From the NCBI RefSeq assembly GCF_030409605.1, contig NZ_JAUFQG010000004.1, positions 540,430 through 604,429 of the forward strand: a DNA stretch of 64,000 nt. Reading direction: 5' to 3'. The translations under genes were made by a program, and so were the position numbers. This document shows, piece by piece, positions 6,734 to 35,331 of the stretch. Each line of letters starts with the position of its first letter. Position 1 is the first letter of the stretch. The notes beneath the pieces were generated by a model. That model worked only from the letters and a program-made list of their open reading frames with translations. It did not search any database and was not told where the DNA came from. The stretch comes from Simiduia curdlanivorans. Lineage in GTDB: Bacteria > Pseudomonadota > Gammaproteobacteria > Pseudomonadales > Cellvibrionaceae.

Positions 6734-6855
6734 CGCGCGGTACAGGAAGATTTATCCCGCCGCGGCAAAAATTTTTACTGCGGCACGGGCGTCGCCCGTT
6801 AAAGCAGCAACATTATTCTAACTATCTGATGTCAGCCTTTCGTAAGGATTACGCT

Positions 6856-14488: not shown

Positions 14489-16062
14489 TGGAATATTGCC
14501 ACTTTCACCCGCTCTCATCGGCCACCTTTTATTGCGACCACTGCCTTACCAACCTGTGCGACCACTGCATAGACGACACTCAACAGCGCGGTGGCGAGCG
14601 CTGTATTAGCTGCGCAAAACCGCTCATTAGCTTGGGCGCAGCGCACAGCGCCGAGCCATTCTGGCGTAAACTAAAAGACGCTTTTCACTACCCACTCTAC
14701 GGTCAGTCGTTAACGTTAATCATTGGCGTCGCCGTGATGACCAGCGTGGTGGCCTATATTCCCTTTGCCATCGTCTTCTATCTCATGGCCGTGGGCGCTT
14801 TAATGCGCTATAGCTTTGCCTGCCTAGAAAATACCGCCAATGGCAAAATGACGGCGCCCGATATCACCGAGGCTTACGAAGGTGGCATACTGCTGATATT
14901 TCAATTAATCGGCATTGTCGTCATTATGACGGCAGCTGTTTTTGGCGTTAACGAATTTTTAGGCGAAGGCCTTGCCCGCCTACTCGCCGTATTTTGTCTA
15001 TTGAGTTTTCCCGCGATTATTATTTTATTCGCCTTGAACAGAAATATGTTCGACGCCATTAATCCTCTCAGTATCACTCAGCTGATACTGTCAGTAGGCC
15101 TCTCCTACGGCGTGCTATTGGGTTTAATCTTGGTAATGAGCGCATCCGTTAGCGTTATTCACGAACTCATCGGTGCAGAATTTTCCTTCATCAATGCCTT
15201 ACTACAAGGCATCGTTTCCAACTTCTATACCGTTGTGACCTTTCATATCATGGGCTATATGATCTTCCAATATCAGGCCGAGCTAGGCTTCGTTGCCCGA
15301 GAAGATCACGGTGGTATCGCCAAAAGCAAAACTGAGCAAGACTTGCACAATGCCAAAATAGACATAGCACTTAAACTAGGGCAATACGGCCGAGTGGTAG
15401 ATCTGTTCGGCGAAGCCAATCGGAAATTCCCCAATGACTACAATTACTATGTGCGCTGCTTCGACCTTCTCTGCGCTATCAAACAAACCGATCGCTTAGA
15501 AAAGTTTTTACCTTTCTACTTTGATTTTTTACCCAAGGCTCAACGCGGCGATCAAATTTACCCGAGCTTTAAACGCGCCCTCGGCCTCATACCCAACTAC
15601 CTACCCGCCACCGCCAAGCTGCGCCACCAGCTGGCGGAGCAATGCCAATTCAAAGGCGACCCCAAGTCAGCGCTGCGCCTGCTCAACGGCATTCACAAAC
15701 ACTTCCCCACCTACCCAAAACTAACGGCCGCCTACGAAGTGATGGAGCGCGCCTTGGGCGACCTACCCAACATGGAAAAGCAGCGCGCGCAATGTAAAAC
15801 ATTCATTGAAAACTTAAAACAAAAGGCCGCAGAAGCAGAAGCGGCAAAACAGGCGGCGCAAGCCATACTAAAACCCAAGAACAAGCCCATGCTCGACAAG
15901 TCGGCTCTGCGGCCGAATAAAGACAACACGCCACAGGAAGCCCAAACACAGCCGCTGCGCAAGAGCGAGCAACAAAAGCTACGGGCACAGCAATTAGCGG
16001 AGAGAAATGCTAAGGGAGAGGCAGAGGGCAAAGACTTGCCACCGATTGAGTTTAAGCCTTAG
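14488..16062 (+). CDS. membrane protein with N-terminal B-box-type zinc finger, polytopic middle and Lys/Gln-rich C-terminus
   Basis: The ATG overlaps the rhomboid stop (TAATG). CHFHP..YCDHCLTNLCDHC..CISC is a Cys/His zinc-binding pattern. Eight or more hydrophobic helices follow, and the C-terminal ~90 aa are low-complexity K/A/Q/E-rich. Confidence 0.65.
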   Translation: MEYCHFHPLSSATFYCDHCLTNLCDHCIDDTQQRGGERCISCAKPLISLGAAHSAEPFWRKLKDAFHYPLYGQSLTLIIGVAVMTSVVAYIPFAIVFYLMAVGALMRYSFACLENTANGKMTAPDITEAYEGGILLIFQLIGIVVIMTAAVFGVNEFLGEGLARLLAVFCLLSFPAIIILFALNRNMFDAINPLSITQLILSVGLSYGVLLGLILVMSASVSVIHELIGAEFSFINALLQGIVSNFYTVVTFHIMGYMIFQYQAELGFVAREDHGGIAKSKTEQDLHNAKIDIALKLGQYGRVVDLFGEANRKFPNDYNYYVRCFDLLCAIKQTDRLEKFLPFYFDFLPKAQRGDQIYPSFKRALGLIPNYLPATAKLRHQLAEQCQFKGDPKSALRLLNGIHKHFPTYPKLTAAYEVMERALGDLPNMEKQRAQCKTFIENLKQKAAEAEAAKQAAQAILKPKNKPMLDKSALRPNKDNTPQEAQTQPLRKSEQQKLRAQQLAERNAKGEAEGKDLPPIEFKP

Positions 16063-16177
16063 GGCCCTTTAGATATACCGTGAAGTAAGACGCTATTGAG
16101 TTTCATTCGAGCACTAAGATATTTAAATTAAGGATTATGCACGACTTCAGGAGATTAACCGTTACAGCTTTTAAAGC

Positions 16178-16378
16178 TTAACTGAGAACCCCATCATAAG
16201 ACCAAAATCGCTTCCAGCTGCTTGGCTTTGGATGCGCAAGAGCATATTCCCTTCGCTTTATGTGATCCAAACTTTCGAACCAGTCGGCAAATTCAAACCA
16301 GTAACTTTCCCCCGGATCTTGCCGCCACCACATCGAGCCTAAAGGCTTGTTCGGATATTTTTCCCAAGGAGGCATCAT
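16178..16378 (-). CDS. hypothetical small Trp-rich protein
   Basis: 66-aa ORF in the AT-rich islet (MMPPWEKYPNKPLGSMWWRQDPGESYWFEF...). Its reality is uncertain. Confidence 0.35.
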   Translation of the reverse strand: MMPPWEKYPNKPLGSMWWRQDPGESYWFEFADWFESLDHIKRREYALAHPKPSSWKRFWSYDGVLS

Positions 16379-16570
16379 TGCCTATACCATAGAAATAGAA
16401 ACAATTTTGGAGTTAATAAACAACCCTTAACGGTACATAGAATGCAACCCATGCCGGTTAAAGACCTATGACTTAGTGCCATTAGAAAACGGTAATTAAC
16501 AGTTAACACTTGTAGCGAGGCGGGATTAGTGCCGAGTTCAGCAGCGATAGGAGCGGCTTGACCACCCTTA

Positions 16571-16948
16571 TTAATTTCCATTCGCACACACCAACTTGAG
16601 GTCGTGATTAATGGACTTGTAAAATTGAGGGTAGCCACTATCGGTTTTGTATGACACTACAACCCCATTCTCTAGTAACCCGATATTGTAGGACGGATAA
16701 GTATACCAAAGCTTAGGTAGATACGACGCATAAGACGGACTCCAACCTTCATTATTACTCCTAATCCAATTTGTAATTTCTAGGTATCTCTCATCTGCGC
16801 CAAAAATTTGCTTACCGCAATATTCAAATTCCGAAGGTAACAACGCAGCATCGATACTTTGCGATCGAAATACATATAGCAGTAATCCAACCACTAGGAA
16901 AACCACAGTTAGAAATATAACTCCGATGATCTTTGGTGCACTTTTCAT
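16571..16948 (-). CDS. hypothetical membrane-anchored protein
   Basis: 125 aa with an N-terminal TM helix (IIGVIFLTVVFLVVGLLLYVF) and an aromatic-rich ectodomain, in a low-GC region. Confidence 0.5.
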   Translation of the reverse strand: MKSAPKIIGVIFLTVVFLVVGLLLYVFRSQSIDAALLPSEFEYCGKQIFGADERYLEITNWIRSNNEGWSPSYASYLPKLWYTYPSYNIGLLENGVVVSYKTDSGYPQFYKSINHDLKLVCANGN

Positions 16949-16994
16949 AGAATCTTAACGCCAATGTTATGCGGAATTATTTTTGGATAAAATT

Positions 16995-17786
16995 ATGATT
17001 AAATTAGTGCTAGTTTTAATTCTAGCTGTACAAATTTTAACGGTTCTTGTAGGAAAAGAAGAAAGTGACTCGCCCACAAGTTACGATAGTGAATTAAATG
17101 CAAAGCAACTGCGAGAAAAACTTGTTAAATCGTGCAGCAAAAAAAATGAAATTTATGCATTCTGTACTTGTTTTCGGGAAAATCTTGATTTAGTGACAGA
17201 TGATGACCTGACTAAATACCGAGATCGAAAAAGGGTTTTAGAGGCTGAGGCGATGAAAGCGAAGGTATCAGGTGATATAGTTAAGCTAGATGTAATTACC
17301 ACTGACATCAGTGAAGGATTGATTGATAACAAGATAAGTAAAAAATGCATGCCACCGCTTTTATTGGAGGGCGAGGAGTATGAGAAAAATTTTAATAAAG
17401 GAATCTATCACTACGCAAAAAAGGATTACAAAAAAGCAATAGAGTATTGGTTGCCATACGCTGAAGCTGGCAGCGGGCCCGCAATGGCAAACCTAGCTGC
17501 GCTCTACAATAGAGAAATAGATGGACAGATTGATCTACTAAATTTATACCATTGGAGTTTTAAGTCAGGTCTTAATGGAGATTCACAGGCGCAATTTAAT
17601 TTGGCTGTAATGTTTTTAAACGGCGAGACGGGAAGCAAGGATCTGATAAAGAGTTATGTATGGGCTGAGAAGGCGGCGCAAGGTGGTCACGACACAGCGC
17701 AAAAGCTTAAGGGTGACCTTGATCGTTATCTATCCAATGATCAGATCGTTGAGGCACAAAAGTACTCAGCAGAGATATTTCAATAG
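16995..17786 (+). CDS. Sel1-like repeat (SLR/TPR-like) protein with signal peptide
   Basis: ATG at aa 5 of ORF 16983. Sel1 repeat signatures: AEAGSGPAMANLAALYN, GDSQAQFNLAVMFLNGETG, AEKAAQGGHDTAQKL. Confidence 0.7.
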   Translation: MIKLVLVLILAVQILTVLVGKEESDSPTSYDSELNAKQLREKLVKSCSKKNEIYAFCTCFRENLDLVTDDDLTKYRDRKRVLEAEAMKAKVSGDIVKLDVITTDISEGLIDNKISKKCMPPLLLEGEEYEKNFNKGIYHYAKKDYKKAIEYWLPYAEAGSGPAMANLAALYNREIDGQIDLLNLYHWSFKSGLNGDSQAQFNLAVMFLNGETGSKDLIKSYVWAEKAAQGGHDTAQKLKGDLDRYLSNDQIVEAQKYSAEIFQ

Positions 17787-17917
17787 GGCCAAGGAAGTTG
17801 CATAACAAATCAAGGCAGCCGAACCAAAACGCTTACTTCGTTCGCGTTTCGGTCGGCTGCTTGAGGCGTTATATGCCGTGTGAAGCGAAGCGTAACGAGG
17901 TCACATTGACATTTTTG

Positions 17918-18325
17918 TTATGCATTTTCTTCCTCATCAAAGTACATATCCCAAGAAATACCTAACCCATATTTTACCAACTCTTTCATCATTGCCACGC
18001 TCAGTCTAGGCCCACCCTGGCCAGTTGAATCCCAACGGCAAAATATATCAGTTGAACAGCCAGAATCGCGAAGGGATGATAGCTCACCCTCTTTACCGTT
18101 TAGTAGAGAAAGCAAAAGCTCCAAATGTTTCACGTTATCGGTGGAATTCAAATCAACTTCTGTAGTTCTCGACCAAAAGTTCAACTCTCTTCTGGGTTTG
18201 TATTTTGAATTAGGGTCTCTTGGTACTGAATCAGTCGATTGGATGCCAATATACTTTTCGATTTCATCAGGGTGCATTTCATCTGAAAATATTCTTAATG
18301 TAGCGTATGTTTCAGTACAAGCCAT
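17918..18325 (-). CDS. DUF4279-like hypothetical protein
   Basis: 135 aa. The N-terminus TYATLRIFSDEMHPDEIEKYIGIQSTDS resembles the DUF4279 family N-terminal signature. Low GC. Confidence 0.5.
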   Translation of the reverse strand: MACTETYATLRIFSDEMHPDEIEKYIGIQSTDSVPRDPNSKYKPRRELNFWSRTTEVDLNSTDNVKHLELLLSLLNGKEGELSSLRDSGCSTDIFCRWDSTGQGGPRLSVAMMKELVKYGLGISWDMYFDEEENA

Positions 18326-25063: not shown

Positions 25064-25098
25064 GACTTGCCACAACTATTGATGTGAGCATTTCTGCA

Positions 25099-25136
25099 AC
25101 AATAAAAAAGGGTGGCACTTGCTACCCTTTTTTATT
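25099..25136. terminator. bidirectional rho-independent terminator (38-bp near-perfect palindrome)
   Basis: CAATAAAAAAGGGTggcacttgctACCCTTTTTTATTG lies between convergent pntB and zinc-ribbon genes. Confidence 0.65.
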
Positions 25137-25146
25137 GTCCGCCCTG

Positions 25147-25695
25147 TTATTTATCGGCGGCGTAGGGATCATCGGCAAAAAGATAGGCGCGCAGTACCGA
25201 TCTATCTTCTTGCTGCATCAACCATTCGCGAAAATTCTTTAGCTTCTGGTAGCGCTCGGTACCAAATTTCTTTTCATATAAATCGCTAAAGGTCTGCTTG
25301 GCGTGGTCGGCGCGAATTTGTTTTTGCCATTGCCGCGTCAGCACTTTGTTGAGCGAACCGGCAAGTTTATGCTCTTTCAACAACTCCCACTCGCCCTTAT
25401 CCAACCAGATGCCGCCCACTGCCGGGCTATAATCCAATTTGTGTTGAATATCAGCCGCCAATTTAATTTTTTGCATGATGGCACCAGACACGGGGCAAAG
25501 CATCGCCGATGCAGTTTCCGACATTTCCATCGGCTGAGCTTCGGAGAAGTCGTGATCCGGGTGCGCCGCCAACCAAGCCACATAGTCTTCGACGAAGACC
25601 CAATTACCCAAGCAATGATGACAGGTGTGGGCGCGAAACAACCCGTCGATAAAGCTCGGCCGTAACTCACCCTGCTTGCAACTTGTACACTTCAT
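25147..25695 (-). CDS. zinc-ribbon protein (CxxC..CxxC + CPxxG), last gene of PspA/flotillin/giant-ATPase operon
   Basis: 182 aa: MKCTSCKQG..CHHCLGNW and a second CPVSG element. It starts 23 bp downstream of the giant gene stop on the same strand. Confidence 0.6.
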   Translation of the reverse strand: MKCTSCKQGELRPSFIDGLFRAHTCHHCLGNWVFVEDYVAWLAAHPDHDFSEAQPMEMSETASAMLCPVSGAIMQKIKLAADIQHKLDYSPAVGGIWLDKGEWELLKEHKLAGSLNKVLTRQWQKQIRADHAKQTFSDLYEKKFGTERYQKLKNFREWLMQQEDRSVLRAYLFADDPYAADK

Positions 25696-25718
25696 ACTAT
25701 TCCCGCCTTCGCTACTGA

Positions 25719-28700
25719 TTATTCTTTATGTTCATCGTTCTTTTTCAGAGACCGCTTATTACCCGCCGCCAAGGCGCGCAGCTGATGTGATACATCCTGC
25801 ATCTTGTCGTGGGTTTTCAAATCTATTTCTAGTTTTTTGTCCATGCTGCGCACCAGCGGGAAAATACTGTTTTCGATAGTATCGGCCAAGGCCGTTAACA
25901 TGCGATCGATACCAGGAACCGGCTGATTAATCACCTCCACTTTTGGCGCCAACTTTTCTAAGGATTTTGCGATACCCAGAATTGCTAATACTAGAGGTTC
26001 GCGCGCCGACTTCTCTGTTCTAGGCTTGGCCTGAGCCGTTACCATGGCTTCGCGCAAGGATTGAACGCTGGCCACCATATCAACCAATTGCGCTACAATT
26101 TTGCCGCCGGCATCGGCATCGTCGCCACCCATGGCTTTATTGCGCATGAAATCTTTCTTGATCGCCTGCCAGCGCTCCGCCTGCAGCTCCGTCATGTTGC
26201 CGCGCAATTCGGCCAATTTTAATAAGTTGGCCTCGGCACCGGTGGTGAGCAACTGGGCCTCACCTAAATAGTGATCGGCTATCATCTGCATCAGCTCGGC
26301 ATCGTTCATCACGGCAGAAATTTTCTCCGTCATTTTATTCATATTGCGGTAGCTACCCTGCAACTTGAACGGTGGCTCGGTGCGGTATTTGTCATCTTGC
26401 GCGGCGGAGATAATGTATTGCTGGTTAATTTTTAATACCACATCGCGCACCACCATCATTTTCTTCAAAACGCCGGTGATCTCACCAATTTCAGAACTGC
26501 TATAGGCATGGCTTAAATCTGTTGTGGCAATACTCTCGCCTTGCGCCATTTTCACCAGCTTATAAACATCGGCCATTTCCCGTGTTGCCAGCGGCGCTAA
26601 TACCGGGTTTGAGGTGAGCGAGTTTTCGATATAACTCAGCGCAAATTGCTCGTCCATACCGCCGAGAATATCGCCCAAGTTATAGATATCGGCTCGGTTA
26701 GCGAGCATATCCGGAATTTTAAATGCCTCACCCGACTCAGTGTAGGGGTTACCCGCCATCACTACGCAAAACTTCTTACCGCGCATATCGTAGGTTTTAG
26801 TCTGCTTGCGCCATACGCCTTCGATGCGCCGTGTGCCGTCGCACAAGGAAATAAATTTCTGCAAAAACTCTGGGTCTGTGTGTTGAATATCATCGAGATA
26901 CAACATCACGTTATTACCCATCTCTAAACCCAGGTTTAGTTTCACCAATTCCTGTCGCGCCGTGGCATTGGGCGCTTGCTCTGGGTCGAGTGACAGCACG
27001 TTATGGCCGAGCGACGGGCAGTTGATTTTCATAAAAATCAAACCCAGCCGATTTGCCACATACTCCATTAAGGTGGTTTTACCGTAACCCGGCGGCGAAA
27101 TCATCATCAGCAAACCCATGAGATCGGTTCGCTTAGTTTCACCAACGGTACCCATTTGCTTGGCGAGGTTGTCGCCAATTAAAGGCAGATAGGATTCATT
27201 AATGAGCCGGTTTCGAACAAAGGAGCTCAGCGGCCGCGCTTTAAATTCATGTAGCTTTAAGCCCTTGCGCTCGCGCTCAACGATAGCCTGACGCACCTTG
27301 TGGTACTGATGATAACCGGCCACCACCACGCGCCGATGGTGCGCCATGCGCAACAGAAAACTGTCTATCTCTAGACTCAAACGGCCTTGATCGAGTAGCG
27401 GGTGATCACCCAACAGTCCCTCAACGATCAATTGTAAGTCGGCCTCGGTATCGCGCCGACGTACATTTTTAGCCGCCAGCATGGCTGCAGCCTCGGGAAT
27501 AAAATGGCGCGCCTTATCACTTTTCTGATGTTCGGTCAGTGCATCGAGCCAGACGCTAATGACGCGAAGCTTCTCACCGGGGCGTTGGTCTAAATTTTCT
27601 AACACCGACTGAAATCTTGCCCACACCACGTCGTCCATGGCACTTCGCAAGCCTGCCTCTAATGCGCGCGCATACTTGCTGGATATAAACGCAAATTGAT
27701 CTCGGGCCAATTCAGCCACCAAATACTGAGCCGCGCGCTCGGTATTGTGGCCACTGCTATCAACGCCCTGCGCCTCAACCCAAAGCGACATGGCAGCGTG
27801 AACCTCCTGCTCTAAAAGCGCTATCGCTTTACCGCTGGCGAACAAGGTATTCAGTAGGGCCGCCGATTGTGCCCGTTGTTGCCACTGCTTTACCTTTGAC
27901 TGGCTTAAGCGGGTATCGTCAGCCACATCGACAAAGCTTGCCCAAAAAACCTGCGCCAAGGCGCGGCACTGCGGGTCGAAGCGCAAGAGATCTGCGGCAT
28001 CTAGCGCCGGTAAGAGCGCCTGCAGAATTTTGGTTGCATCGCTATCGTGTATGCCTTTTTCGTAACCCTCTTTGTAGCGCGGCGCGGCAAAAGCTTTGAC
28101 CAAGTTAGCCAGCTTCGCCTCATCTAACAAAGCCTCTTGCAGAATGCCTAAACTCAGCGCCTCGCTCCCCGCACGCGCCGCCTCGAGCAAACTGTAGGCG
28201 AGGTATTCACCTCGGTACACCTGCTCCGTCTCGGACTCAATATTCAACTGCCAGTAATCACTGAGTGCGTTCAGCTCGGCATCGTCTATTGGCTCGTAGT
28301 AATCCGTGCCCAAGAGATGAATATTGAGTTTATTATTTCGCGGAATAATGGTCAGGTCTAACTCCTGGGTATTGACCGAAAAACGGTGCCGCGGGCCCAA
28401 TTTTATAACACTGCCACCCGCTTCAAAGATGTCGCTTTTATCGCGCAGCGAACGCAGCGCCTGTTCTTTTACCGCCTTAAAGCGCGCATCCACATCATCG
28501 GCTTTGACGGCGCTATTGAGCTGGCGCAAGCGCTCGGAAAATTCCCGCACTTTTTGCACCAAGGCATCGGAGGCAAAGTAGGTGTTTAGCTCGTCTTTAT
28601 CGGTGAACTTTAGGGTTCGCTTTTCGATGCTCGATAACACTCGACTGGCCGCGTCTACAACCGACTGTGCCTTTTGCTGCTGCTCATCCAATAACTTCTG

Positions 28701-30995
28701 CTTATGGCCCTCAAAGGCCTCATAAACCTCTTCCCGCTTGCCAATAATCTCAGTCAAAAATTGATCGTACTCGCTAAACTGGCTTTCGAATTCTTCTAAC
28801 TGCACCAGTAGTCGCGATAACTGCTCATCGCACTTTTCCGGTGTATCGGCCAAACTCAGGGCGTTGTTAATACTTTGGCTAAACAGTTTAAATTGGGCAC
28901 CAAACTGCGCCGTTGCCTCGGTCGAGCCTAGGCTTTTATATTTGTTGCGCGCGATAGCGCGGCTTTGATTGAGCAAGCCGTAAACTTCAGAAATCGCATC
29001 GACGATACGGGTCGTCACGGTGGCGTCATCACCTTGCAAGGTACTCATGAGTTCGGTTAACAAATCGAGCTCAGCCGCTGCTTGATCAATATTGTCAATG
29101 CAGGGTGTGACCTCCGCCCTCACCTCGGCTTGATCAACCGCGGCCTGAACCCCTTGAATTTTTTCGTGATAGGGTTGCAGGGCTTTTTCATCGGCGAGAA
29201 AGCCTAAGGTACGCTCACTCAAATTCGCTTCTGCTGACTCTAGCTCCTTGGTCAACGTTTCAATAATCTTGAGGTCGATATAACGATAACTGGAGATACT
29301 AACTAAATGCCCGCGCTGGCGGCGCAACTTAGTCAGCATCGAAACAAATTGATCAGCACTCTGCCATTCGTCTGGCCGCACCGCGCGCAACAGTTCCACC
29401 TGGGTTTGTTTTGCGTCGGTTAACGCTTTGCTCGATTGCAGCTGAATAGATTGAACCTTTTCAAACTCATCAATCACTAGCTCGGCGGTCGCGGAAACAT
29501 CTTTCAACACCTGCGCCAAGTCACCCAGCGCTTCGTCGGACACCCAATAGTGTTCGTCGAATATTTTTTTCGCCGCTAGATTTAGCTCTTCATAAATTTT
29601 TGCGGACACCTCGGGATTCTCGATCAACCGAGTAAGACTTAATAGATTTGAAACACCGCGCACCAGCTCTGAGTTACCTATTTTACCGAAAGCGGTTTTG
29701 CTAGGCGGTAGTTTACTGGCGAATTCAGCGCTAAAGAAGGGCGTGGTCCAAATTTGCATGGGATGCACCCGCGTCGGTTCATCGCCGGCGCTGAATATCA
29801 CCAAGGTGCCATCATCGGCCAAGGCGTAACCGTGGCAAGTTATCGGATTTTTTAGGCTCTTCTCGATCATATTGTAGGAGAGCAATACCAAAACACCGTT
29901 GACCGGCTCATAAAAAACATAGAGCACATCTTCGCCGTTGGGCGAGCGCACGACGCGTTTAATTTTTAGGCCAATGGTGCGCTCTTCGAAAGTTTTATGC
30001 TCGCCAGTTTGTAAGTAGTAACCACCGGGGAAAATAATCCCGTGATCCTCTGGCAGCTGCACGCAAGACATGCCAATGGCGTCTATACGAAGCACTTTTT
30101 GCGTCAGGGTGTTATAAACAAAGTGGCGCCAAAGCTCTTCGCGGTAAGGCTTAACTTTCAACAATATCAAGGCACCTACACGGGCATAGGAAATATCGGC
30201 ATCGTCTAAGGATTGGGTTTTATCTTCAACTGGCTCGCGGTAGATACCTAAGCCATCTTCGGTATTATTTTCCACCTTGATGGTAAGATCGCCGCCCACG
30301 GTTTCCACAAACACGGTGTCTTCAATATTGACATGTGGGTGTTTGCCGTGCACGCTGTGTTCGCGCGTAGTTTCTATCCAGGTAAAATCAAAAGCCGGCG
30401 GCAGAGAGATATCGCGCTCACCACGGTTATCAATATATTTTACGGTTTTACCATCGGCCGATATGGACCAGCGAAATACGCGCAGGTCATCTAATCGCTC
30501 GCCAATCTGAAAACCCGCCAGTAATTTTCCGTCTTTAACACTTAGCTCGATTAACTTAGTGTGCTTGTAGTAGCGATATAGCTCGCTGAAATCGTTGACG
30601 AAGCCTCTATCGGCTAAAAAAGTTCCCTCGGCGGAAACCTGCTCGAGATCTGTATCGGAATCATTGGAACCCAATTTGAATAGAGAAAAAACGTCTTCGA
30701 CTGCGGTCTCTTTCTTTAAGCCAATGAAAACGTTGTAGCCGAATAAAAGATAATCCCCAACTTGGACGATATCTCTTGGCACACAGTTATTGACCGTTCG
30801 AATGCGAGTGCGGGCGCTGACGGCCATGTCAGAGCTGCCGAACTCCTGCAAGCGGCGCTCATTGATAGTGTTAGCAATCTGCTTTAGCGATTGCCCTTGT
30901 GCAACCAGACGCTTGCGGATGATCTCGTAGGCACCGCCCTGCGCAACCGCATCGTCAACTACACCGTCTTGCGCCGGCTTCGCAGCTTCGCTCAT
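25719..30995 (-). CDS. 1758-aa multidomain protein with C-terminal AAA_5 (MoxR/McrB/dynein-type) ATPase module; N-terminal ~1150 aa uncharacterised
   Basis: Uninterrupted 5.3-kb ORF. Motifs: Walker A ISPPGYGKTTL, Walker B VMLYLDDIQH, sensor-1 CVVMAGNPY, Arg finger/sensor-2 MLANRADIYN. The central region is predicted coiled coil (QLQSSKALTDAKQTQVELL...). Often auto-annotated 'DNA repair ATPase' without support. Confidence 0.85.
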   Translation of the reverse strand: MSEAAKPAQDGVVDDAVAQGGAYEIIRKRLVAQGQSLKQIANTINERRLQEFGSSDMAVSARTRIRTVNNCVPRDIVQVGDYLLFGYNVFIGLKKETAVEDVFSLFKLGSNDSDTDLEQVSAEGTFLADRGFVNDFSELYRYYKHTKLIELSVKDGKLLAGFQIGERLDDLRVFRWSISADGKTVKYIDNRGERDISLPPAFDFTWIETTREHSVHGKHPHVNIEDTVFVETVGGDLTIKVENNTEDGLGIYREPVEDKTQSLDDADISYARVGALILLKVKPYREELWRHFVYNTLTQKVLRIDAIGMSCVQLPEDHGIIFPGGYYLQTGEHKTFEERTIGLKIKRVVRSPNGEDVLYVFYEPVNGVLVLLSYNMIEKSLKNPITCHGYALADDGTLVIFSAGDEPTRVHPMQIWTTPFFSAEFASKLPPSKTAFGKIGNSELVRGVSNLLSLTRLIENPEVSAKIYEELNLAAKKIFDEHYWVSDEALGDLAQVLKDVSATAELVIDEFEKVQSIQLQSSKALTDAKQTQVELLRAVRPDEWQSADQFVSMLTKLRRQRGHLVSISSYRYIDLKIIETLTKELESAEANLSERTLGFLADEKALQPYHEKIQGVQAAVDQAEVRAEVTPCIDNIDQAAAELDLLTELMSTLQGDDATVTTRIVDAISEVYGLLNQSRAIARNKYKSLGSTEATAQFGAQFKLFSQSINNALSLADTPEKCDEQLSRLLVQLEEFESQFSEYDQFLTEIIGKREEVYEAFEGHKQKLLDEQQQKAQSVVDAASRVLSSIEKRTLKFTDKDELNTYFASDALVQKVREFSERLRQLNSAVKADDVDARFKAVKEQALRSLRDKSDIFEAGGSVIKLGPRHRFSVNTQELDLTIIPRNNKLNIHLLGTDYYEPIDDAELNALSDYWQLNIESETEQVYRGEYLAYSLLEAARAGSEALSLGILQEALLDEAKLANLVKAFAAPRYKEGYEKGIHDSDATKILQALLPALDAADLLRFDPQCRALAQVFWASFVDVADDTRLSQSKVKQWQQRAQSAALLNTLFASGKAIALLEQEVHAAMSLWVEAQGVDSSGHNTERAAQYLVAELARDQFAFISSKYARALEAGLRSAMDDVVWARFQSVLENLDQRPGEKLRVISVWLDALTEHQKSDKARHFIPEAAAMLAAKNVRRRDTEADLQLIVEGLLGDHPLLDQGRLSLEIDSFLLRMAHHRRVVVAGYHQYHKVRQAIVERERKGLKLHEFKARPLSSFVRNRLINESYLPLIGDNLAKQMGTVGETKRTDLMGLLMMISPPGYGKTTLMEYVANRLGLIFMKINCPSLGHNVLSLDPEQAPNATARQELVKLNLGLEMGNNVMLYLDDIQHTDPEFLQKFISLCDGTRRIEGVWRKQTKTYDMRGKKFCVVMAGNPYTESGEAFKIPDMLANRADIYNLGDILGGMDEQFALSYIENSLTSNPVLAPLATREMADVYKLVKMAQGESIATTDLSHAYSSSEIGEITGVLKKMMVVRDVVLKINQQYIISAAQDDKYRTEPPFKLQGSYRNMNKMTEKISAVMNDAELMQMIADHYLGEAQLLTTGAEANLLKLAELRGNMTELQAERWQAIKKDFMRNKAMGGDDADAGGKIVAQLVDMVASVQSLREAMVTAQAKPRTEKSAREPLVLAILGIAKSLEKLAPKVEVINQPVPGIDRMLTALADTIENSIFPLVRSMDKKLEIDLKTHDKMQDVSHQLRALAAGNKRSLKKNDEHKE

Positions 30996-31052
30996 GGTTT
31001 ATTCCTTTTCCACTAAAGAGAGGCAAACGAGGGGAGCTAGGCTCTCCACTTT

Positions 31053-32948
31053 TTACGCGCTTGGCGTGTCTTTGTTGACGTCCGCAACCGGCGTATCTAC
31101 CAAGCGATGCAATATCGCCTGTAGGGTTCCGCTCTTTTCAGCCAAGCCATCAATGGCCTTGCCGATGGACAGAGACTTAGCAAAGTTATTGAAGAAATGA
31201 TCTTCACCGCCGACGATATCGATCTTGGCTTTCTGCAGCGCAGTCGCCAAGACTTCGGCATTTTCTTTAGCGATTTCCTTACCTGCATCGATAGACGCCA
31301 AGGCCTCTTTCAATGCGGTTTCCAGCCCCATGCGGAACTCTTCGTGGGCACGCGCCTGTGCGCTCATGCTATTCATGGCGCCGAACTTCTCAACCAGGCC
31401 ATCGGCCTCGGCTTTAAATTGCTCGCGCGTCACTTCGGCATTGGCCATACCGATTTGGCGTGCAGCGCGCGCCTCAGAATCGCCTTTGGCGCCGATAACT
31501 TCGGCTTGCGCTTTACCCGTACCCAAGAGCGCATCGGCTTCCGCATCGCCTTTGGCGCGAATAACATTGGCTTCAGCAAGCCCTGGCGCTGCGCGCTCGG
31601 CCTGCACGCCTTCCGCCATTTTCTTCTTCGCCTCAGCTTCTTTAGTAGTCGCTTCCAATTGCGCTTGCGCTAACAAGGTAATCTCTACCGACTTATGCTT
31701 GGCGGCCTGCTCTTCAGCTTCAGCGGCTTTCACCTGCTTCACTTTGTCTTCTTCAGCCAGCGCTTCCGCTGCCAACACTTTAGTTTGCTTGGCGCGATCG
31801 GCCTCGGACACTTCGCGCACTTCTTTAATGCGCTCTTCTTCGATGGCCACAGTCTTATCGACAGCGACGCGCTCGCGAATCACATTGGCAATTTCTTTCT
31901 TCTCAACTTCTACCGCTTTTTCAGCTTCTATGCGTTGAATTTCAACTTCGCGCTCGCGGGCAACAATTTCCAGATCTCGCGCTCGGGTTACTTTTTCTTC
32001 TTCGATAGCCACAGCGCGTAAACGATTCTGCGTGGCCACCTCGATTTCGCGCTGTTGATTCTCGGTTTTAACCGCAAGATCTTGATCGACCTGAATGGTA
32101 GTAGACTGAGCCCTGAGGCGCTCTTCTTCCTGCACCTTTTTTGTTTCCGCCTCTTCGCGCGCCCGAATGGTGGCGATTTCGCGCTCTTGCTTGGCTTCGG
32201 CATCAGACTGCTGACGCTCAAGCGCGAGCATGGCCTCAACGGTTTCCACGTTCTTCTTTTTGATTGCCAATTCTTCATCGCGCTCTAGCACATTGGTGCG
32301 CACATTCTGCACCGCGGTGAGCTCGGTAATTTTCTTGATGCCCTCGGCATCCATGATGTTGCTAGGGTCGAGGGATGATTTCGGCGTTTGCTCTAGGTAG
32401 TCGATGGCCACATCTTCGAGCACATAGCCATTTAAATCCTCGCCAATGACCGCGACAATTTTTTCGCGGAACTGCATTCTGTTTTCAAACAGATTAACGA
32501 ACTCAATTTGCTTACCCACGGTTTTCAAAGCTTCGGAAAACTTGGCATTAAACAGTAAGTTAACCGCTTCGCGATCTGAAGCACGACTAGCGCCGATGGA
32601 CTTGGCCACCTTCAACACATCTTCCGCGGTTTCGTTAACCCGAAGATAGAAGGCAACGGTAATATCGGCGCGCATATTGTCGGCACAAATTAAGCCGTCT
32701 TTGCCACGCCTATCCACTTCCAAGGTAATCAATGAAATTTTCATCAATTCCTTTTTGTGAATAATCGGGTAGACCAGTGCACCGGTAAAATGCACTTTCG
32801 GCTTCGGACTCATATCGTTGACGATAAGTGCCACACCTTGCTCCACCTTTACATAAAAGGCTTTAAAGAGCGCCGCTAGCCCCATGAGAATTACAAAGAC
32901 TATCCCTACACCCGAAAGAATCGGCATGAGCACTGAAAGATCAGCCAT
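31053..32948 (-). CDS. flotillin/SPFH (band 7) family protein, YqiK-like, with long EA-rich coiled-coil
   Basis: 631 aa: N-terminal TM helix, SPFH domain (QGVALIVNDMSP... DNMRADITVAFYLRV), ~250 aa of E/A/K/R heptad-like repeats, and a C-terminal flotillin tail. Confidence 0.85.
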   Translation of the reverse strand: MADLSVLMPILSGVGIVFVILMGLAALFKAFYVKVEQGVALIVNDMSPKPKVHFTGALVYPIIHKKELMKISLITLEVDRRGKDGLICADNMRADITVAFYLRVNETAEDVLKVAKSIGASRASDREAVNLLFNAKFSEALKTVGKQIEFVNLFENRMQFREKIVAVIGEDLNGYVLEDVAIDYLEQTPKSSLDPSNIMDAEGIKKITELTAVQNVRTNVLERDEELAIKKKNVETVEAMLALERQQSDAEAKQEREIATIRAREEAETKKVQEEERLRAQSTTIQVDQDLAVKTENQQREIEVATQNRLRAVAIEEEKVTRARDLEIVAREREVEIQRIEAEKAVEVEKKEIANVIRERVAVDKTVAIEEERIKEVREVSEADRAKQTKVLAAEALAEEDKVKQVKAAEAEEQAAKHKSVEITLLAQAQLEATTKEAEAKKKMAEGVQAERAAPGLAEANVIRAKGDAEADALLGTGKAQAEVIGAKGDSEARAARQIGMANAEVTREQFKAEADGLVEKFGAMNSMSAQARAHEEFRMGLETALKEALASIDAGKEIAKENAEVLATALQKAKIDIVGGEDHFFNNFAKSLSIGKAIDGLAEKSGTLQAILHRLVDTPVADVNKDTPSA

Positions 32949-32990
32949 AATGGTTACTCCATTTCCAAATAACGTAAGTTTTAAATGAAA

Positions 32991-33683
32991 TCAATTACCG
33001 GAAAATTCAGCTTCCGAAATGACTTTATAAATATTTGTCGCAACCTCGTGCTCTAATAATACCACGCGATCACCCTTCACAAATTCAACACCCGGCTCGC
33101 TGCGCACCTTAAGCAGCAAACCCGCGCCACCGTCCGACAAAATCGCCTCGCCCATTTGGCTATTAACCACTGAGCTACGCACAACCGCCGTTTGCCCGAT
33201 AATAAATTGCACCGTTTGCTGGCGTGCATTTTTAAATAAGGGGCGGAGCGGCTTTATCACCTGACTGGTGATCATCACCGCAGCATACAGGGAAGCGAAA
33301 AGCACCGGCAAACCGAGCAAATAGCGCAAAAAACCATCTGGCACCCAACCAAACAGGAAGTGCACAAGGTAATAGCAGACCAGCCAGCCGAATAGTGCGA
33401 TCAGCGACACGATAATGGTGACAGGTACACCCTGAAGACCGAACTTCAACATCAAGGCGGCCAGTACATCGGGGGTTGAGTGACTGCTATCGGCATTGAT
33501 ATCTAGGTCGCCGTCCATATCCGGCACATCGAAATCGAGCATATCAATATCGACGAAACCCAAGACCGCAACCAGCCAATACAGCAGGCATAAAATTAGA
33601 AAGAAGCTAAAAATAGCGGTCGGGAAAGACGCTAAATTTTGATAAAAGGGGTCCATTTTATCGGAAAGTAGTATTGCGAACAT
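32991..33683 (-). CDS. YqiJ-like inner-membrane protein with NfeD-type OB-fold C-terminus
   Basis: 230 aa with 3-4 TM helices, an acidic loop (DIDMLDFDVPDMDGDLD) and a C-terminal beta-rich segment (GQTAVVRSSVV...LLLKVRSEPGVEFVKGDRVVLLE), as in NfeD partners of flotillins. Confidence 0.65.
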   Translation of the reverse strand: MFAILLSDKMDPFYQNLASFPTAIFSFFLILCLLYWLVAVLGFVDIDMLDFDVPDMDGDLDINADSSHSTPDVLAALMLKFGLQGVPVTIIVSLIALFGWLVCYYLVHFLFGWVPDGFLRYLLGLPVLFASLYAAVMITSQVIKPLRPLFKNARQQTVQFIIGQTAVVRSSVVNSQMGEAILSDGGAGLLLKVRSEPGVEFVKGDRVVLLEHEVATNIYKVISEAEFSGN

Positions 33684-33756
33684 GCCCCAACTCCCTGGTC
33701 AATTTTTGCACGCCGTAGCGCAGCCTTGAAAGCGCCCTCAAGCGGGGCGCACTAGG

Positions 33757-34458
33757 CTATGCCTTCTTATTTTTTAGCCGCTCGAGCACATCGGCTGCAC
33801 TGGCGCCACTGGAGGCAATACCTGCCGCCTCTAATTTGGCCTGCAATGATACATCAGAATCTTCCTGTGCCAACTCCGAAGCGGCGGCCATTTGTGCCGA
33901 CTTCAGCTCTTGGCGCTCTTTAATGCGCTCGAGCGAGTCCATGGCGGTGCGCATTTTGGAGTTTGAGCCGCTGTGGCGCTCGGCCACTGCCGCCTGCGCA
34001 CGCTGGACATTATCCGTGGCTTTTACCGTATCCACCTGTTGCTTCAAGCGCTTAAGGTTTTGCTCAGTCTGCTTAATCGCCGCGCGTAGCTTGTCGGCAT
34101 TGGCGGCATAGGCCTGCACTGACTCTTGCTCCTGCTTTAGCTGGTTTTCAAAATCGGCAATTTTACCAGCCACTTCCAGCGCTAAAGCCTCATCCGACTT
34201 GTCTAGCGCCTTAACCGCATAAGCTTCGTGCTCTTCAACCTTTTTCTGCAAGCCGGCCACTTTCTGCTCGGCCAACTTTTGACGGGCAATAATCTCTGCC
34301 AAACTATCCTTTGAAAGCTTCAAGCCCTCAGAGGCATCGCGCACCTCCTGATCGAGAATTCGCAACGCTTGACTGTCGACAATCGCCTCGCCCGCTTCAT
34401 TTACGCCACCGCGCAACGCGGTCATCATCTTCGCCCAAATATTCATATTTTTCTCCAA
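33757..34458 (-). CDS. PspA/IM30-family protein (YjfJ-like; bacterial ESCRT-III superfamily)
   Basis: 233 aa, all-helical coiled coil. The N-terminus MNIWAKMMTALRGGVNEAGEAIVDSQALRILDQEVRDA is collinear with E. coli YjfJ/PspA family starts. The start may be Met5. Confidence 0.85.
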   Translation of the reverse strand: MEKNMNIWAKMMTALRGGVNEAGEAIVDSQALRILDQEVRDASEGLKLSKDSLAEIIARQKLAEQKVAGLQKKVEEHEAYAVKALDKSDEALALEVAGKIADFENQLKQEQESVQAYAANADKLRAAIKQTEQNLKRLKQQVDTVKATDNVQRAQAAVAERHSGSNSKMRTAMDSLERIKERQELKSAQMAAASELAQEDSDVSLQAKLEAAGIASSGASAADVLERLKNKKA

Positions 34459-34468
34459 TTCGCTAAAA

Positions 34469-35092
34469 TTAATTAAGCAAATGCTCAGCGTAAGCTTCTG
34501 TTGCCTGAATCACATTGCTCGCCAACACTTCAATTTCAAAGATAATATTCTGCAGCGCCGAGGCCGAACTGAGCGCACCAAACATGTGGTAGTAATCGCC
34601 CTCGGCGCCCAAATTATCTAAACTTATGGTCGATAGCGGAAAGTACTTGTGGGTGCGCAAAACCATTTCATTAAACGCCGCCGTATCTTTAACTTCGCTC
34701 ACCGACCACAACAGGGATTCGACGATGATCTGCTCGCCCACAACCGTTAAGAAAACCGGCAAATCGCCATACTCTTTCATAACAATATGCAACGCCGGTT
34801 CGACGCCGTCGATCAACTCGACACTGGCTCGACGCTGCTCGCTGAATAAATCACTCTCTTGCAAAGCTGCGTAGAGGGTGGCCGTTGTCCAAGCGTGTAA
34901 TTCCTGCATAAACACTTCTCCTTTCGTCATTTCTACTTCGCCCGGCAGCCGCAGCAACTTTTCATATTGCAAAAGTAACTTGCTGTGCTTGGGGAGAATC
35001 CAAACTTCCTTTTTAACCAGCCCCTGCTCGCGCAGCCGCTGGCGATACTCTCGTTGATAATGTGCAGATGATTTAGGCTTCATAAGGGTCAC
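34469..35092 (-). CDS. DUF2170 (YjfI-like) protein
   Basis: 207 aa encoded 10 bp upstream of the PspA-like gene. The listed start is GTG; an ATG at aa 4 (~35083) is the more likely start. Confidence 0.65.
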   Translation of the reverse strand: MTLMKPKSSAHYQREYRQRLREQGLVKKEVWILPKHSKLLLQYEKLLRLPGEVEMTKGEVFMQELHAWTTATLYAALQESDLFSEQRRASVELIDGVEPALHIVMKEYGDLPVFLTVVGEQIIVESLLWSVSEVKDTAAFNEMVLRTHKYFPLSTISLDNLGAEGDYYHMFGALSSASALQNIIFEIEVLASNVIQATEAYAEHLLN

Positions 35093-35099
35093 AATAATT

Positions 35100-35158
35100 A
35101 ATTACATGTAAGAAGGCAAGAAAATTACATGTAATATTTAGACAAATTACATGTAAGC
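35100..35158. promoter_or_regulatory. three copies of the perfect palindrome ATTACATGTAAT in the promoter/leader of the YjfI-PspA-flotillin-ATPase operon
   Basis: aattaATTACATGTAAgaaggcaagaaaATTACATGTAATatttagacaaATTACATGTAAgcgc lies 8-70 bp upstream of the operon start. Centre-to-centre spacings are 24 and 22 bp. Confidence 0.5.
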
Positions 35159-35331
35159 GCTAGCTGATACCGGGGAAACCTCGCACAGAAGTATGCAAGC
35201 TATTGAAAATAAAGAGATTTATTTGAGACCCTTATTGATTATGGCAAGGCTCTGCAAGACACTAATACCCGCTTTACGCTTCGCCAATAAGGAAATTTCG
35301 CCCTCCCTAGGGTTGTGGAAGGCTCGGTTAG

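Follow-up and report, generated by a model that had tools for sequence, protein, structure and literature searches.

Known Operons Related to the Simiduia Locus

Operons that join PspA to a flotillin and a large AAA+ protein are known from comparative genomics and from work on Pseudomonas aeruginosa. Ravi et al. (mSystems 2024; preprint 2020; PMC11237479) described an operon type with the order CesT/Tir–PspA(YjfJ)–YqiJ/YuaF–flotillin–novel AAA+, shortened flotillin–YqiJ(–AAA+) operons that lack PspA, and a PLD/HKD hydrolase as the sixth gene "in some Proteobacteria". The P. aeruginosa representative is the bacABCDEF operon (PA3732-PA3727 / PA14_16140-16200; Macé 2008; Wallart 2024), for which RT-PCR across all junctions indicated one transcript (PMC10948618) and for which biofilm, rhamnolipid, swarming, and virulence phenotypes have been reported (PMC10948618, PMC2587700); these phenotypes are known only for Pseudomonas. 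The contact between BacA and BacB was given an AlphaFold interaction probability of 0.981 (PMC13092808). A further paper that names PA3729, an eLife study of Arc, was set aside as irrelevant because the protein is a background match in pull-downs.

Two other systems are partially comparable. In Escherichia coli K-12, the homologs of the first four genes (YjfI, YjfJ, YqiJ, and YqiK; 36%, 34%, 23%, and 30% identity to the Simiduia proteins) are divided between two separate loci, yjfIJ, which lies within a polyamine-type yjfIJKLMC operon, and yqiJK. This agrees with the preliminary description of the locus. A search of 5,426 complete E. coli genomes for the giant ATPase gave no homolog. The Bacillus subtilis operon pspA-ydjGHI (samGHI) places PspA together with an SPFH/flotillin-like protein and a two-zinc-ribbon protein, and its SPFH protein YdjI is needed for bringing PspA to the membrane (PMC8581546; Ravi et al. 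PMC11237479). By analogy, it offers the best experimental precedent for a coupling of PspA to flotillin and for a zinc-ribbon partner, but it contains no AAA+ ATPase, CesT-like protein, or YqiJ-like protein, and its proteins are not orthologous to those discussed here.

Identification of a bac-Type Operon in Simiduia curdlanivorans

A 64-kb stretch of the S. curdlanivorans genome (the window) contains six co-directional ORFs, designated A to F, on the minus strand at 25147-35092, which confirms the six genes of the preliminary description. The gaps between them, from A to F, measure 10, 73, 42, 57, and 23 bp, within the 10-75 bp noted before. The operon is almost certainly the S. curdlanivorans ortholog of the published multi-phylum membrane-associated operon, bacABCDE(F) in P. 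aeruginosa, based on a gene A product that NCBIfam assigns to its BacA equivalog and that aligns with the crystal structure of BacA (8q8o), and on an A-B-C-D-E order that is the same as in the Pseudomonas loci with 44-65% identity per protein (compared with Pseudomonas paraeruginosa L034). The P. aeruginosa genes bacA-E are orthologous to A-E in the same order and encode a DUF2170 protein, a PspA-like protein, a YqiJ-like protein, a flotillin-like protein, and a giant ATPase, whereas the sixth gene encodes a PLD-like protein (PLDc_2) in Pseudomonas and a zinc-ribbon protein in Simiduia. The operon itself is already known, and the linkage that had been regarded as new is found both in the operon type of Ravi et al. 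(PMC11237479) and in the experimentally studied P. aeruginosa ortholog (PMC10948618, PMC2587700). Pfam recovered DUF2170, PspA_IM30, Zn_ribbon_TFIIB, and AAA/AAA_5, in line with the assignments made from the sequence before, but whole-protein Pfam searches returned no match for the YqiJ/NfeD-like product of gene C or the flotillin encoded by gene D.

Gene A (34469..35083, minus strand, 204 aa from ATG 35083) encodes a BacA/YjfI-like protein. The ORF reaches GTG 35092 (34469-35092, 207 aa), but the start at ATG 35083 is favored because the alignment to the NCBIfam BacA model begins at residue 4 and the N-termini of the orthologs agree. With this probable start, the end at 35160 given in the preliminary description takes in the promoter rather than coding sequence. 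The protein matches Pfam DUF2170 (E 1.6e-52), NCBIfam NF050185 "biofilm formation regulator BacA" (309 bits, cut-off 300), and the P. aeruginosa BacA structure (PDB 8q8o, E 2.6e-40, residues 61-202 only), and is thus a DUF2170, CesT/Tir-fold protein of the BacA/YjfI type, as is found in the first position of bac-type operons. The DUF2170 domain (CesT/Tir-type chaperone fold) is preceded by a conserved N-terminal domain of ~45 aa that is weakly MazE-like: the MazE-like model PF11455 matches 20 of 32 gene A orthologs with a best E of 0.0013, under the cut-off, and a profile search of the PDB returned no solved structure that matches the domain. The conserved MazE-like N-terminal domain of BacA-type proteins seems to be undescribed in the searchable literature. 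Gene B (33757..34446, minus strand, 229 aa from the likely start ATG 34446, in an ORF that reaches TTG 34458; 33757-34458, 233 aa) encodes the YjfJ-type PspA/IM30 protein characteristic of the second position, with matches to Pfam PspA_IM30 (E 8e-46) and over the full length to E. coli YjfJ (34% identity, E 4e-31).

Gene C (32991..33683, minus strand, 230 aa) encodes a YqiJ/DUF1449-like inner-membrane protein with three TM segments. Its relation to E. coli YqiJ was identified by BLASTP (E 2e-5) and hhalign (probability 89%, E 2.2e-6), while the Pfam YqiJ_N match has an E of 0.028, and it shares 29% identity with a Hymenobacter "DUF1449 family protein" and 35% with its Deinococcus counterpart. 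The C-terminal domain is soluble and beta-rich, aligns to the C-terminal region of YqiJ, and may be NfeD-like: Pfam NfeD matches one of 27 gene C orthologs (E 0.0024), and profile searches of the YqiJ-like family against the PDB gave nothing useful. Gene D (31053..32948, minus strand, 631 aa) encodes a YqiK-type flotillin with an N-terminal TM segment, an SPFH/Band-7 domain, a long E/A/K-rich coiled coil, and a C-terminal region. Whole-protein searches of Pfam and the PDB were empty, probably because of the coiled coil, and a scan of the N-terminus alone was needed to detect Band_7 at residues 52-183 (E 1.2e-6, 29.1 bits, cut-off 23.6); the Pfam Flot C-terminal domain scored 6.9 bits, which is not significant. 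An alignment of 463 aa with E. coli YqiK shows 30% identity (E 5e-44), and proteins of this type are named "flotillin family protein / YqiK" in databases. Flotillins linked to the ATPase in Deinococcus, Streptomyces, and Hymenobacter are closer, at 59%, 52%, and 41% identity; the 59% to the Deinococcus protein compared with 30% to YqiK indicates that the ATPase-linked flotillins form a distinct subfamily that travels with gene E. Genes C and D thus supply the YqiJ-like protein and the flotillin of a bac-type operon.

Gene E (25719..30995, minus strand, 1758 aa) encodes the giant AAA+ protein, which consists of an N-terminal helix, a beta-propeller (~58-417, Pfam DUF3686, supported by Foldseek), a long helical region (~423-1250, with DUF7902 inside), one AAA+ module (Pfam AAA/AAA_5), and a helical C-terminal region; an N-terminal propeller followed by a coiled-coil/helical region is typical of the giant AAA+ proteins of bac-type operons. 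Walker A (GYGKTT, 1303-1308), Walker B (LYLDD, 1365-1369), and sensor-1 (N1416) are invariant, and R1434 was also identified. The AAA_5 module named in the preliminary description was matched by Pfam over 124 of 139 model positions, but with a weak score (26.1 bits against a cut-off of 22). AAA_5 is nevertheless the only AAA model that aligns across the whole core. A MoxR/AAA_5 core would, besides the Walker and sensor-1 motifs, be expected to have an NP…G…P…R segment after sensor-1 and a pre-sensor-1 beta-hairpin. Across the entire core, AAA_5 and MoxR proteins match best, whereas similarity to Vps4, p97, and Rix7 is limited to ~35 residues at Walker A, and a PDB sequence search with gene E gave matches only at the Walker-A level. 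The core therefore looks, from its sequence, MoxR/AAA_5-like and not like the classical Vps4 clade. Compared with the MoxR chaperones CbbQ, NorQ, and RavA, the protein is about six times larger, carries the propeller and an ~800-aa helical arm, and belongs to an operon without a VWA partner gene; a search of the six proteins and of the genes on either side found no VWA domain, the typical MoxR partner. HflK/C–FtsH, an SPFH cage around an AAA+ machine, is also comparable in part, but gene E encodes neither a protease domain nor a TM segment.

Conservation of the Operon Organization

The organization of the operon was compared among the best 80 of at least 572 gene E matches (51-67% identity) and three distant loci; 69 loci with enough upstream sequence were informative. 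The C-D-E order (YqiJ-like–flotillin–ATPase) is kept in all 69, in agreement with the fixed flotillin–YqiJ-like pair proposed before, and genes C and D are adjacent in 73 of the best 80 loci. The SPFH–NfeD pairing that had been suggested for these two genes holds for the SPFH domain and for the adjacency, while NfeD itself was found by Pfam only in the single gene C ortholog mentioned above. The CesT-like/PspA pair (A-B) is also present in 52 of the 69 informative loci, which keep the order of a single conserved unit as first described, and the remaining 17 are C-D-E loci without PspA, in agreement with the PspA-less operons of Ravi et al. The invariant core is accordingly formed by the YqiJ-like protein, the flotillin, and the giant ATPase. 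Roughly three quarters of the sampled loci add to it the CesT-like/PspA pair as an extra module, and the constant partner of the ATPase is therefore the flotillin pair and not PspA. More distant relatives of gene E could lack flotillin. The trio or the quintet recurs in Hymenobacter, Streptomyces, and Deinococcus (Bacteroidota, Actinomycetota, and Deinococcota), and the Streptomyces and Deinococcus loci have no adjacent PspA. This arrangement is far beyond chance, and the six genes are one conserved functional unit, bounded by a conserved promoter and a single strong terminator.

Promoter and Operator of the Operon

The promoter/operator region (35091..35156, minus strand) contains three exact copies of the palindrome TTACATGTAA (35147-35156, 35125-35134, and 35102-35111), a −35-like TTGCCT (35114-35119), and a −10-like TATTGT (35091-35096). 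The three copies are the only matches to TTACATGTAA with at most one mismatch in the 64-kb window. The −10-like element is located 7 nt ahead of ATG 35083, which predicts a leaderless or near-leaderless mRNA. Among the orthologs the promoter layout TTGA…17 bp…TAnnnT is conserved, and two palindromes at ~−48 and ~−25 that flank TTGA...TAnnnT are kept in ~40 of 51 ortholog promoters, where the pair straddles the −35 element and fills the spacer of a sigma-70-type promoter. The same paired palindromes, in the same promoter arrangement, occur upstream of P. aeruginosa bacA. Wallart et al. and Macé et al. proposed, on sequence only, a sigma-54 promoter for that operon (PMC10948618, PMC2587700). The sigma-54 motif TGG-N9-TGC has no match in the intergenic region 35093-35331; TTGA…17 bp…TAnnnT is conserved instead.

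The operator palindromes occur only where gene A carries its N-terminal domain. They are absent upstream of gene C in loci without gene A, and in E. coli the N-terminal domain is missing from YjfI and no ACATG motif precedes its gene. Five of six Xanthomonadales-type loci with a variant BacA N-terminus have a variant operator of two mutually inverted sites, and the sixth (L062) has one canonical palindrome. This distribution is consistent with DNA binding by the BacA N-terminal domain, and the overlap of the paired palindromes with the promoter suggests autorepression of the operon. In a P. aeruginosa bacA mutant, BacB-F are increased 6-13-fold (PMC10948618); the mutation is a transposon insertion, and read-through from the cassette could also raise the downstream proteins. 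The operator/promoter design together with the BacA N-terminal domain offers a simple, testable account of derepression in bacA mutants. The chance is close to even, if slightly short of it, that BacA-type proteins are bifunctional, with the CesT-like domain binding PspA and the N-terminal MazE-like domain binding the paired TTACATGTAA palindromes. If true, a partner-switch circuit would tie the engagement of PspA with the membrane directly to the transcription of the PspA–flotillin–ATPase operon, forming a functional analogue of PspA–PspF made of unrelated parts, and the BacA-operator circuit would take the place of the sigma-54 model in P. aeruginosa. The combination of paired palindromes with a sigma-70-type promoter and a leaderless mRNA seems not to have been described in the searchable literature. 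The main text of Ravi et al. contains neither operator palindromes nor the N-terminal domain of the DUF2170 protein, and it does not include zinc-ribbon or rhomboid accessories.

Potential Function of the Operon

The operon joins three topical membrane-organizing families, an ESCRT-III-like PspA, a flotillin/SPFH protein, and a very large AAA+ machine, and a membrane-associated, ATP-driven system is the most reasonable reading of its content. In the mechanism proposed here, the flotillin and its YqiJ-like partner would form an SPFH scaffold at the cytoplasmic side of the inner membrane, and the giant MoxR-like protein would dock on this scaffold through its beta-propeller and long helical arm and act as its ATP-driven assembly or remodeling factor. 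PspA would be a membrane-sealing or remodeling effector recruited to the scaffold, comparable with YdjI–PspA in B. subtilis, and the BacA-like protein would hold PspA via its CesT-like domain. Through its N-terminal domain on the paired TTACATGTAA palindromes over the sigma-70-type promoter, the BacA-like protein would repress the operon, and expression would thereby be coupled to the engagement of PspA with the membrane. Taken jointly, the identity of the operon and this mechanism are assigned a probability of about 0.7. The mechanism by itself is tentative, with appreciably less than an even chance, and the role of the giant ATPase as a dedicated remodeler of the flotillin assembly is its more speculative part. 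The single unit, the fixed gene pair, and the membrane machine of the preliminary description are retained in this interpretation, and its novelty, its Vps4 analogy, and its suggested defense role are not. Tests can be sharpened accordingly, with an ATPase that travels with flotillin rather than PspA and a motor that looks MoxR-like rather than Vps4-like.

PspA is a member of the ESCRT-III-fold superfamily, and the giant AAA+ protein might instead be dedicated to PspA, disassembling or recycling PspA polymers on the membrane in analogy to ESCRT-III/Vps4 with flotillin only as a site marker. PspA and the ATPase share one operon in the 52 loci with the A-B pair, and an ESCRT-like ATP-dependent remodeling was suggested for PspA–AAA+ associations by Ravi et al. 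(PMC11237479). However, the ATPase lacks an adjacent PspA in 17 of 69 loci and in the Streptomyces and Deinococcus loci, no MIT domain, the part of classical-clade ATPases that recognizes ESCRT-III tails, was detected in gene E by Pfam, and its core resembles MoxR/AAA_5 proteins more than the Vps4 clade. The analogy as originally stated is not supported on these grounds, and a PspA-dedicated ATPase is considered unlikely.

An anti-phage or abortive-infection system composed of membrane proteins and a large NTPase, a role also raised in the preliminary description, would be in line with the large orphan ATPases with accessory nuclease or PLD-like genes that are common in defense systems, and PLD-like genes follow gene E in 22 of the best 80 of at least 572 loci. 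It is nevertheless very improbable: PADLOC gave no match for five of the proteins and only coiled-coil noise for PspA (E about 1e-3), no homolog of the ATPase was found in 50,697 phage records, only 13 of 72,556 plasmid records have one and most of these are megaplasmids or chromids, the neighbors in the window (pntAB and an HDOD protein) do not form a defense island, and gene order and sequence are highly conserved across whole orders, which is atypical for defense islands. Similarly improbable is a DNA repair ATPase in an incidental neighborhood of membrane genes, a function named in the Pfam description of DUF3686 ("ATPase involved in DNA repair") and in the NCBI label of the 100% identical S. 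curdlanivorans entry ("DNA repair ATPase"), since Pfam detected no DNA-binding or nuclease domain in gene E, each conserved neighbor is membrane or membrane-associated, the P. aeruginosa ATPase shares transcript and regulation with the bac genes (PMC10948618), and a full-text search for DUF3686 returned no paper. The label appears to be inherited, with no experiment behind it.

Accessory Genes and Terminator

The sixth gene of the operon varies between zinc-ribbon, rhomboid, and PLD. Gene F (25147..25695, minus strand, 182 aa) encodes a zinc-ribbon protein with an N-terminal PF13453 ribbon (Pfam Zn_ribbon_TFIIB, E 4.5e-9), a second degenerate ribbon, and a helical C-terminus, and starts 23 bp past gene E with no structure in between. 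It had been listed as one of the six genes of the operon but is a variable accessory rather than a core member, with homologs near gene E in just 15-19 of the best 80 of at least 572 loci, usually behind rhomboid and PLD genes. No PLD or rhomboid homolog, and hence no PLD/HKD hydrolase as sixth gene, was found in the whole 64-kb window. The genes that flank the operon in the window, pntAB and the gene of an HDOD protein, are housekeeping genes.

None of the four internal intergenic regions gave a more stable fold than shuffled sequences. A simple scan for terminators did not exceed the number of sites in shuffled sequence, and a bulge caused it to miss the terminator after gene F. In this intrinsic terminator (25096..25142, minus strand), a U-run comes after an RNA fold of −24.8 kcal/mol with a z of −5.4. 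The genes are closely spaced, no terminator separates them, and the one strong terminator lies behind gene F, all of which would fit transcription into a single mRNA. The terminator is bidirectional and is shared by the operon and the convergent pntB gene.

Organization of the Operon

A total of six consecutive open reading frames on the minus strand, separated by short gaps as the preliminary description had reported, were confirmed by ORF, gap and Pfam analysis. The operon consists of gene A (BacA/DUF2170, 34469-35092), gene B (PspA of the YjfJ type, 33757-34458), gene C (a YqiJ-like 230-aa membrane protein, 32991-33683), gene D (flotillin, 31053-32948), gene E (giant AAA+ protein, 25719-30995), and gene F (zinc-ribbon protein, 25147-25695), with intergenic gaps of 10, 73, 42, 57, and 23 bp in this order. 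The true start codons of genes A and B are probably the ATGs at 35083 and 34446, respectively. The operon is flanked by pntAA/pntAB/pntB on the opposite strand and by a HDOD-domain gene, and a protein of Simiduia curdlanivorans (Cellvibrionaceae) matches the giant protein at 100% identity. Pfam matches within the operon products comprise DUF2170, PspA_IM30, DUF3686 with DUF7902 and AAA/AAA_5, and Zn_ribbon_TFIIB; the products of genes C and D had no Pfam match when scanned as whole proteins, and Band_7 scored above threshold when the N-terminus of the flotillin was scanned alone. The proposed resemblance of gene C to YqiJ was borne out (BLASTP, E 2e-5; profile comparison, probability 89%, E 2.2e-6), whereas the NfeD-type C-terminus proposed for the same protein is weakly supported. 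A strong bidirectional intrinsic terminator (25096-25142, -24.8 kcal/mol, z -5.4), missed by a simple terminator scan because of a bulge in its stem, is located between gene F and the convergent pntB gene. Four intergenic regions of the operon fold no better than shuffled sequence, and the A-B junction (10-22 bp) is too short for this test.

Conservation of the Gene Neighborhood

A giant-protein profile was run against species-representative genomes and yielded at least 572 confirmed loci, and the gene content of the best 80 was read by tblastn with the six window proteins. Homologs of gene E as a whole comprise more than 6,800 clusters at 90% identity. The gene order A-B-C-D-E on a single strand was seen among these best 80 of at least 572 loci, and the taxa include Cellvibrionaceae, many Pseudomonas, Xanthomonadales and Enterobacterales (Xenorhabdus, Pragia) together with Betaproteobacteria (Lampropedia), a zetaproteobacterium, and Longimicrobium. 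Within the 69 informative loci (at least 4.6 kb of sequence upstream of gene E), A-B-C-D-E was complete in 52 and C-D-E was found alone in 17, and no locus lacked C-D. The proposed linkage of the ATPase to membrane-associated genes is conserved, with synteny to the flotillin and YqiJ-like genes in 69/69 loci and to the CesT-like/PspA pair in 52/69. The operon is one strongly conserved unit with a core of YqiJ-like protein, flotillin, and ATPase, in which the CesT-like/PspA module is optional and the accessory genes are variable and membrane-related.

Three distant copies, each located on a large plasmid, retain the operon pattern: "chaperone Tir"–PspA–DUF1449–flotillin-like–ATPase in Hymenobacter, small membrane protein–flotillin–ATPase in Streptomyces, and YqiJ-like–flotillin-like–ATPase in Deinococcus. 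The window flotillin shares 59% identity with the Deinococcus flotillin but only 30% with E. coli YqiK (whole protein, E 5e-44), indicating that flotillins linked to the ATPase form a subfamily of their own and co-evolve with it. Extra genes (2-3.4 kb) separate flotillin and ATPase in Lampropedia, a zetaproteobacterium, and one other locus; inserted stretches lie at 6600-10000, 6620-8720, 7920-10000, and 7510-10000 of census loci L067, L068, L055, and L078, respectively.

Among the best 80 of at least 572 loci, gene E is followed by a rhomboid gene in 27, a PLD-like gene (BacF in Pseudomonas) in 22, a zinc-ribbon gene in 15-19, and occasionally a MscS-like gene. The rhomboid intramembrane-protease or PLD-like genes often lie directly 3' of the ATPase gene (e.g., L001 15250-15822, L003 15916-16605, Pseudomonas paraeruginosa L034 15234-15941, and 20-27 further loci), and the publications consulted on this operon do not refer to rhomboid genes in their main text. 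The MscS-like mechanosensitive-channel gene, found between the ATPase and zinc-ribbon genes in two loci (L017 15689-16852, L079 15632-16771), is another membrane-stress-related accessory. In contrast to its relatives, the window carries the zinc-ribbon gene as sole accessory, and no rhomboid or PLD homolog was found elsewhere in the 64 kb.

Relation to the Published bac Operon

The preliminary description regarded this gene linkage as new, but the operon type has been published both by Ravi et al. (mSystems 2024, preprint 2020; PMC11237479) and as the bac genes of Pseudomonas aeruginosa. Ravi et al. described an operon with a CesT/Tir(YjfI)–PspA(YjfJ) pair, a 3TM YqiJ/YuaF protein, a flotillin, a novel AAA+ protein and in some cases a PLD hydrolase, as well as shortened versions without PspA (PMC11237479). 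The P. aeruginosa counterpart was named "biofilm-associated cluster" (PMC2587700, PMC10948618), and a mutant in its PspA-like gene PA3731 has defects in biofilm, rhamnolipid, swarming, and virulence (PMC2587700). RT-PCR by Wallart et al. established bacA-bacF as a single operon; the same authors determined the structure of BacA and measured a 6-13-fold rise of BacB-F when bacA was mutated (PMC10948618). In the window, the product of gene A passes the NCBI BacA equivalog model and also matches 8q8o, the crystal structure of BacA. The window operon is an ortholog of this known system, and an ordinary one, in which the variable sixth position is taken by the zinc-ribbon gene. Its value as a discovery is low; the bac-type system is under-studied, and the operator and the N-terminal domain of BacA provide a modest new lead.

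A Putative Operator and the N-Terminal Domain of BacA

Three exact TTACATGTAA palindromes (35147-56, 35125-34, and 35102-11) are located directly upstream of gene A, and no further match, even at one mismatch, exists in the 64-kb window. They overlap a minus-strand promoter region (35091-35156, TTGCCT–17 bp–TATTGT) with a -10 element that ends 7 nt before the gene A ATG. About 40 of 51 promoters of orthologous loci contain two palindromes, near positions -48 and -25 relative to the ATG, which lie on either side of a TTGA -35 element and occupy the 17-bp spacer between it and a TAnnnT -10 element that ends 7-8 nt before the ATG. Based on these short distances the gene A transcript is predicted to be leaderless. 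The motif YYACATGTRR occurs 94 times in 1.8 Mb of locus sequence, mostly at gene A promoters. Of the 17 loci without gene A, 16 have no copy of it ahead of gene C, and the remaining one has a single ACATGT at -145. Nor does it precede E. coli yjfI or the Hymenobacter Tir-like gene, whose products both lack the N-terminal domain. A sigma-54 site has been proposed from sequence alone for the P. aeruginosa operon (PMC10948618, PMC2587700); no such motif was found upstream of gene A in the window.

All BacA orthologs in the sample carry a highly conserved segment before DUF2170 (M..KSSAHYQREYRQRLREQGLVKKEVWILPEHA..L..E..LR). This domain of about 45 aa (34928-35083, minus strand) is conserved in the same region of census loci L001-L079; E. 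coli YjfI (133 aa) and the crystallized P. aeruginosa BacA fragment (PDB 8q8o) lack it. The Pfam MazE-like antitoxin model gave sub-threshold matches in 20 of 32 orthologs (best E 0.0013). Six Xanthomonadales-type loci encode a variant N-terminal sequence, and in five of these the operator is also variant, with TTTCATGTAA and TTACATGAAA as its only two sites, inverted relative to each other and spaced 23-24 bp apart (L057 5408-5440, L066 5470-5502, L072 5470-5503, L065 5961-5993, and L078 3607-3639); L062, the sixth locus, carries one palindrome of the canonical type. This pattern looks like co-variation of protein and operator. In the simplest reading, BacA would bind DNA and act as an autorepressor through its N-terminal domain, which would explain the derepression in the bacA mutant (PMC10948618). 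Neither the palindromes and promoter design nor the N-terminal domain are described in the searched literature on the operon.

The Giant ATPase and a Possible Mechanism

Walker A (GYGKTT), Walker B (LYLDD), sensor-1 (N1416), and R1434 are invariant among the orthologs of gene E, and the protein is therefore presumably an active ATPase. It certainly belongs to the AAA+ proteins and is probably, with some reservation, MoxR/AAA_5-like: AAA_5 is the sole Pfam model that spans the whole AAA+ core, and similarity to Vps4, p97, and Rix7 is confined to the Walker A region. Pfam detected no MIT domain in the protein and no VWA partner with the operon. The giant MoxR-like ATPase may assemble or remodel a flotillin/YqiJ scaffold at the inner membrane, to which PspA would be recruited as a membrane-protecting effector, similar to Bacillus subtilis, where PspA depends on the SPFH protein YdjI to reach the membrane (PMC8581546). 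BacA may act as a chaperone of PspA and additionally repress the operon; an AlphaFold probability of 0.981 has been reported for the BacA–PspA interaction (PMC13092808), and Wallart et al. mention a strong interaction as unpublished (PMC10948618).

The alternative suggested in the preliminary description, a Vps4-like role in which the ATPase services PspA polymers, is possible but weakened by the loci without PspA and by the AAA+ type of gene E, which is not specifically homologous to Vps4. The defense function also suggested there found no support from PADLOC models, from 50,697 phage records, which contain no homolog of the ATPase, or from 72,556 plasmid records, 13 of which, mostly megaplasmids or chromids, carry one. 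Neither domain content nor gene context supports a role in DNA repair, and no support came from the searched literature; the name "DNA repair ATPase" used in databases derives from the Pfam DUF3686 description and is probably a misnomer that is spreading through annotations.

Base Composition of the Window

A 2-kb segment outside the operon (16001-18000) has a G+C content of 0.41, compared with 0.48-0.56 in the rest of the window, and a weakly positive GC skew, whereas nearly all other bins are negative. The segment could be horizontally acquired.
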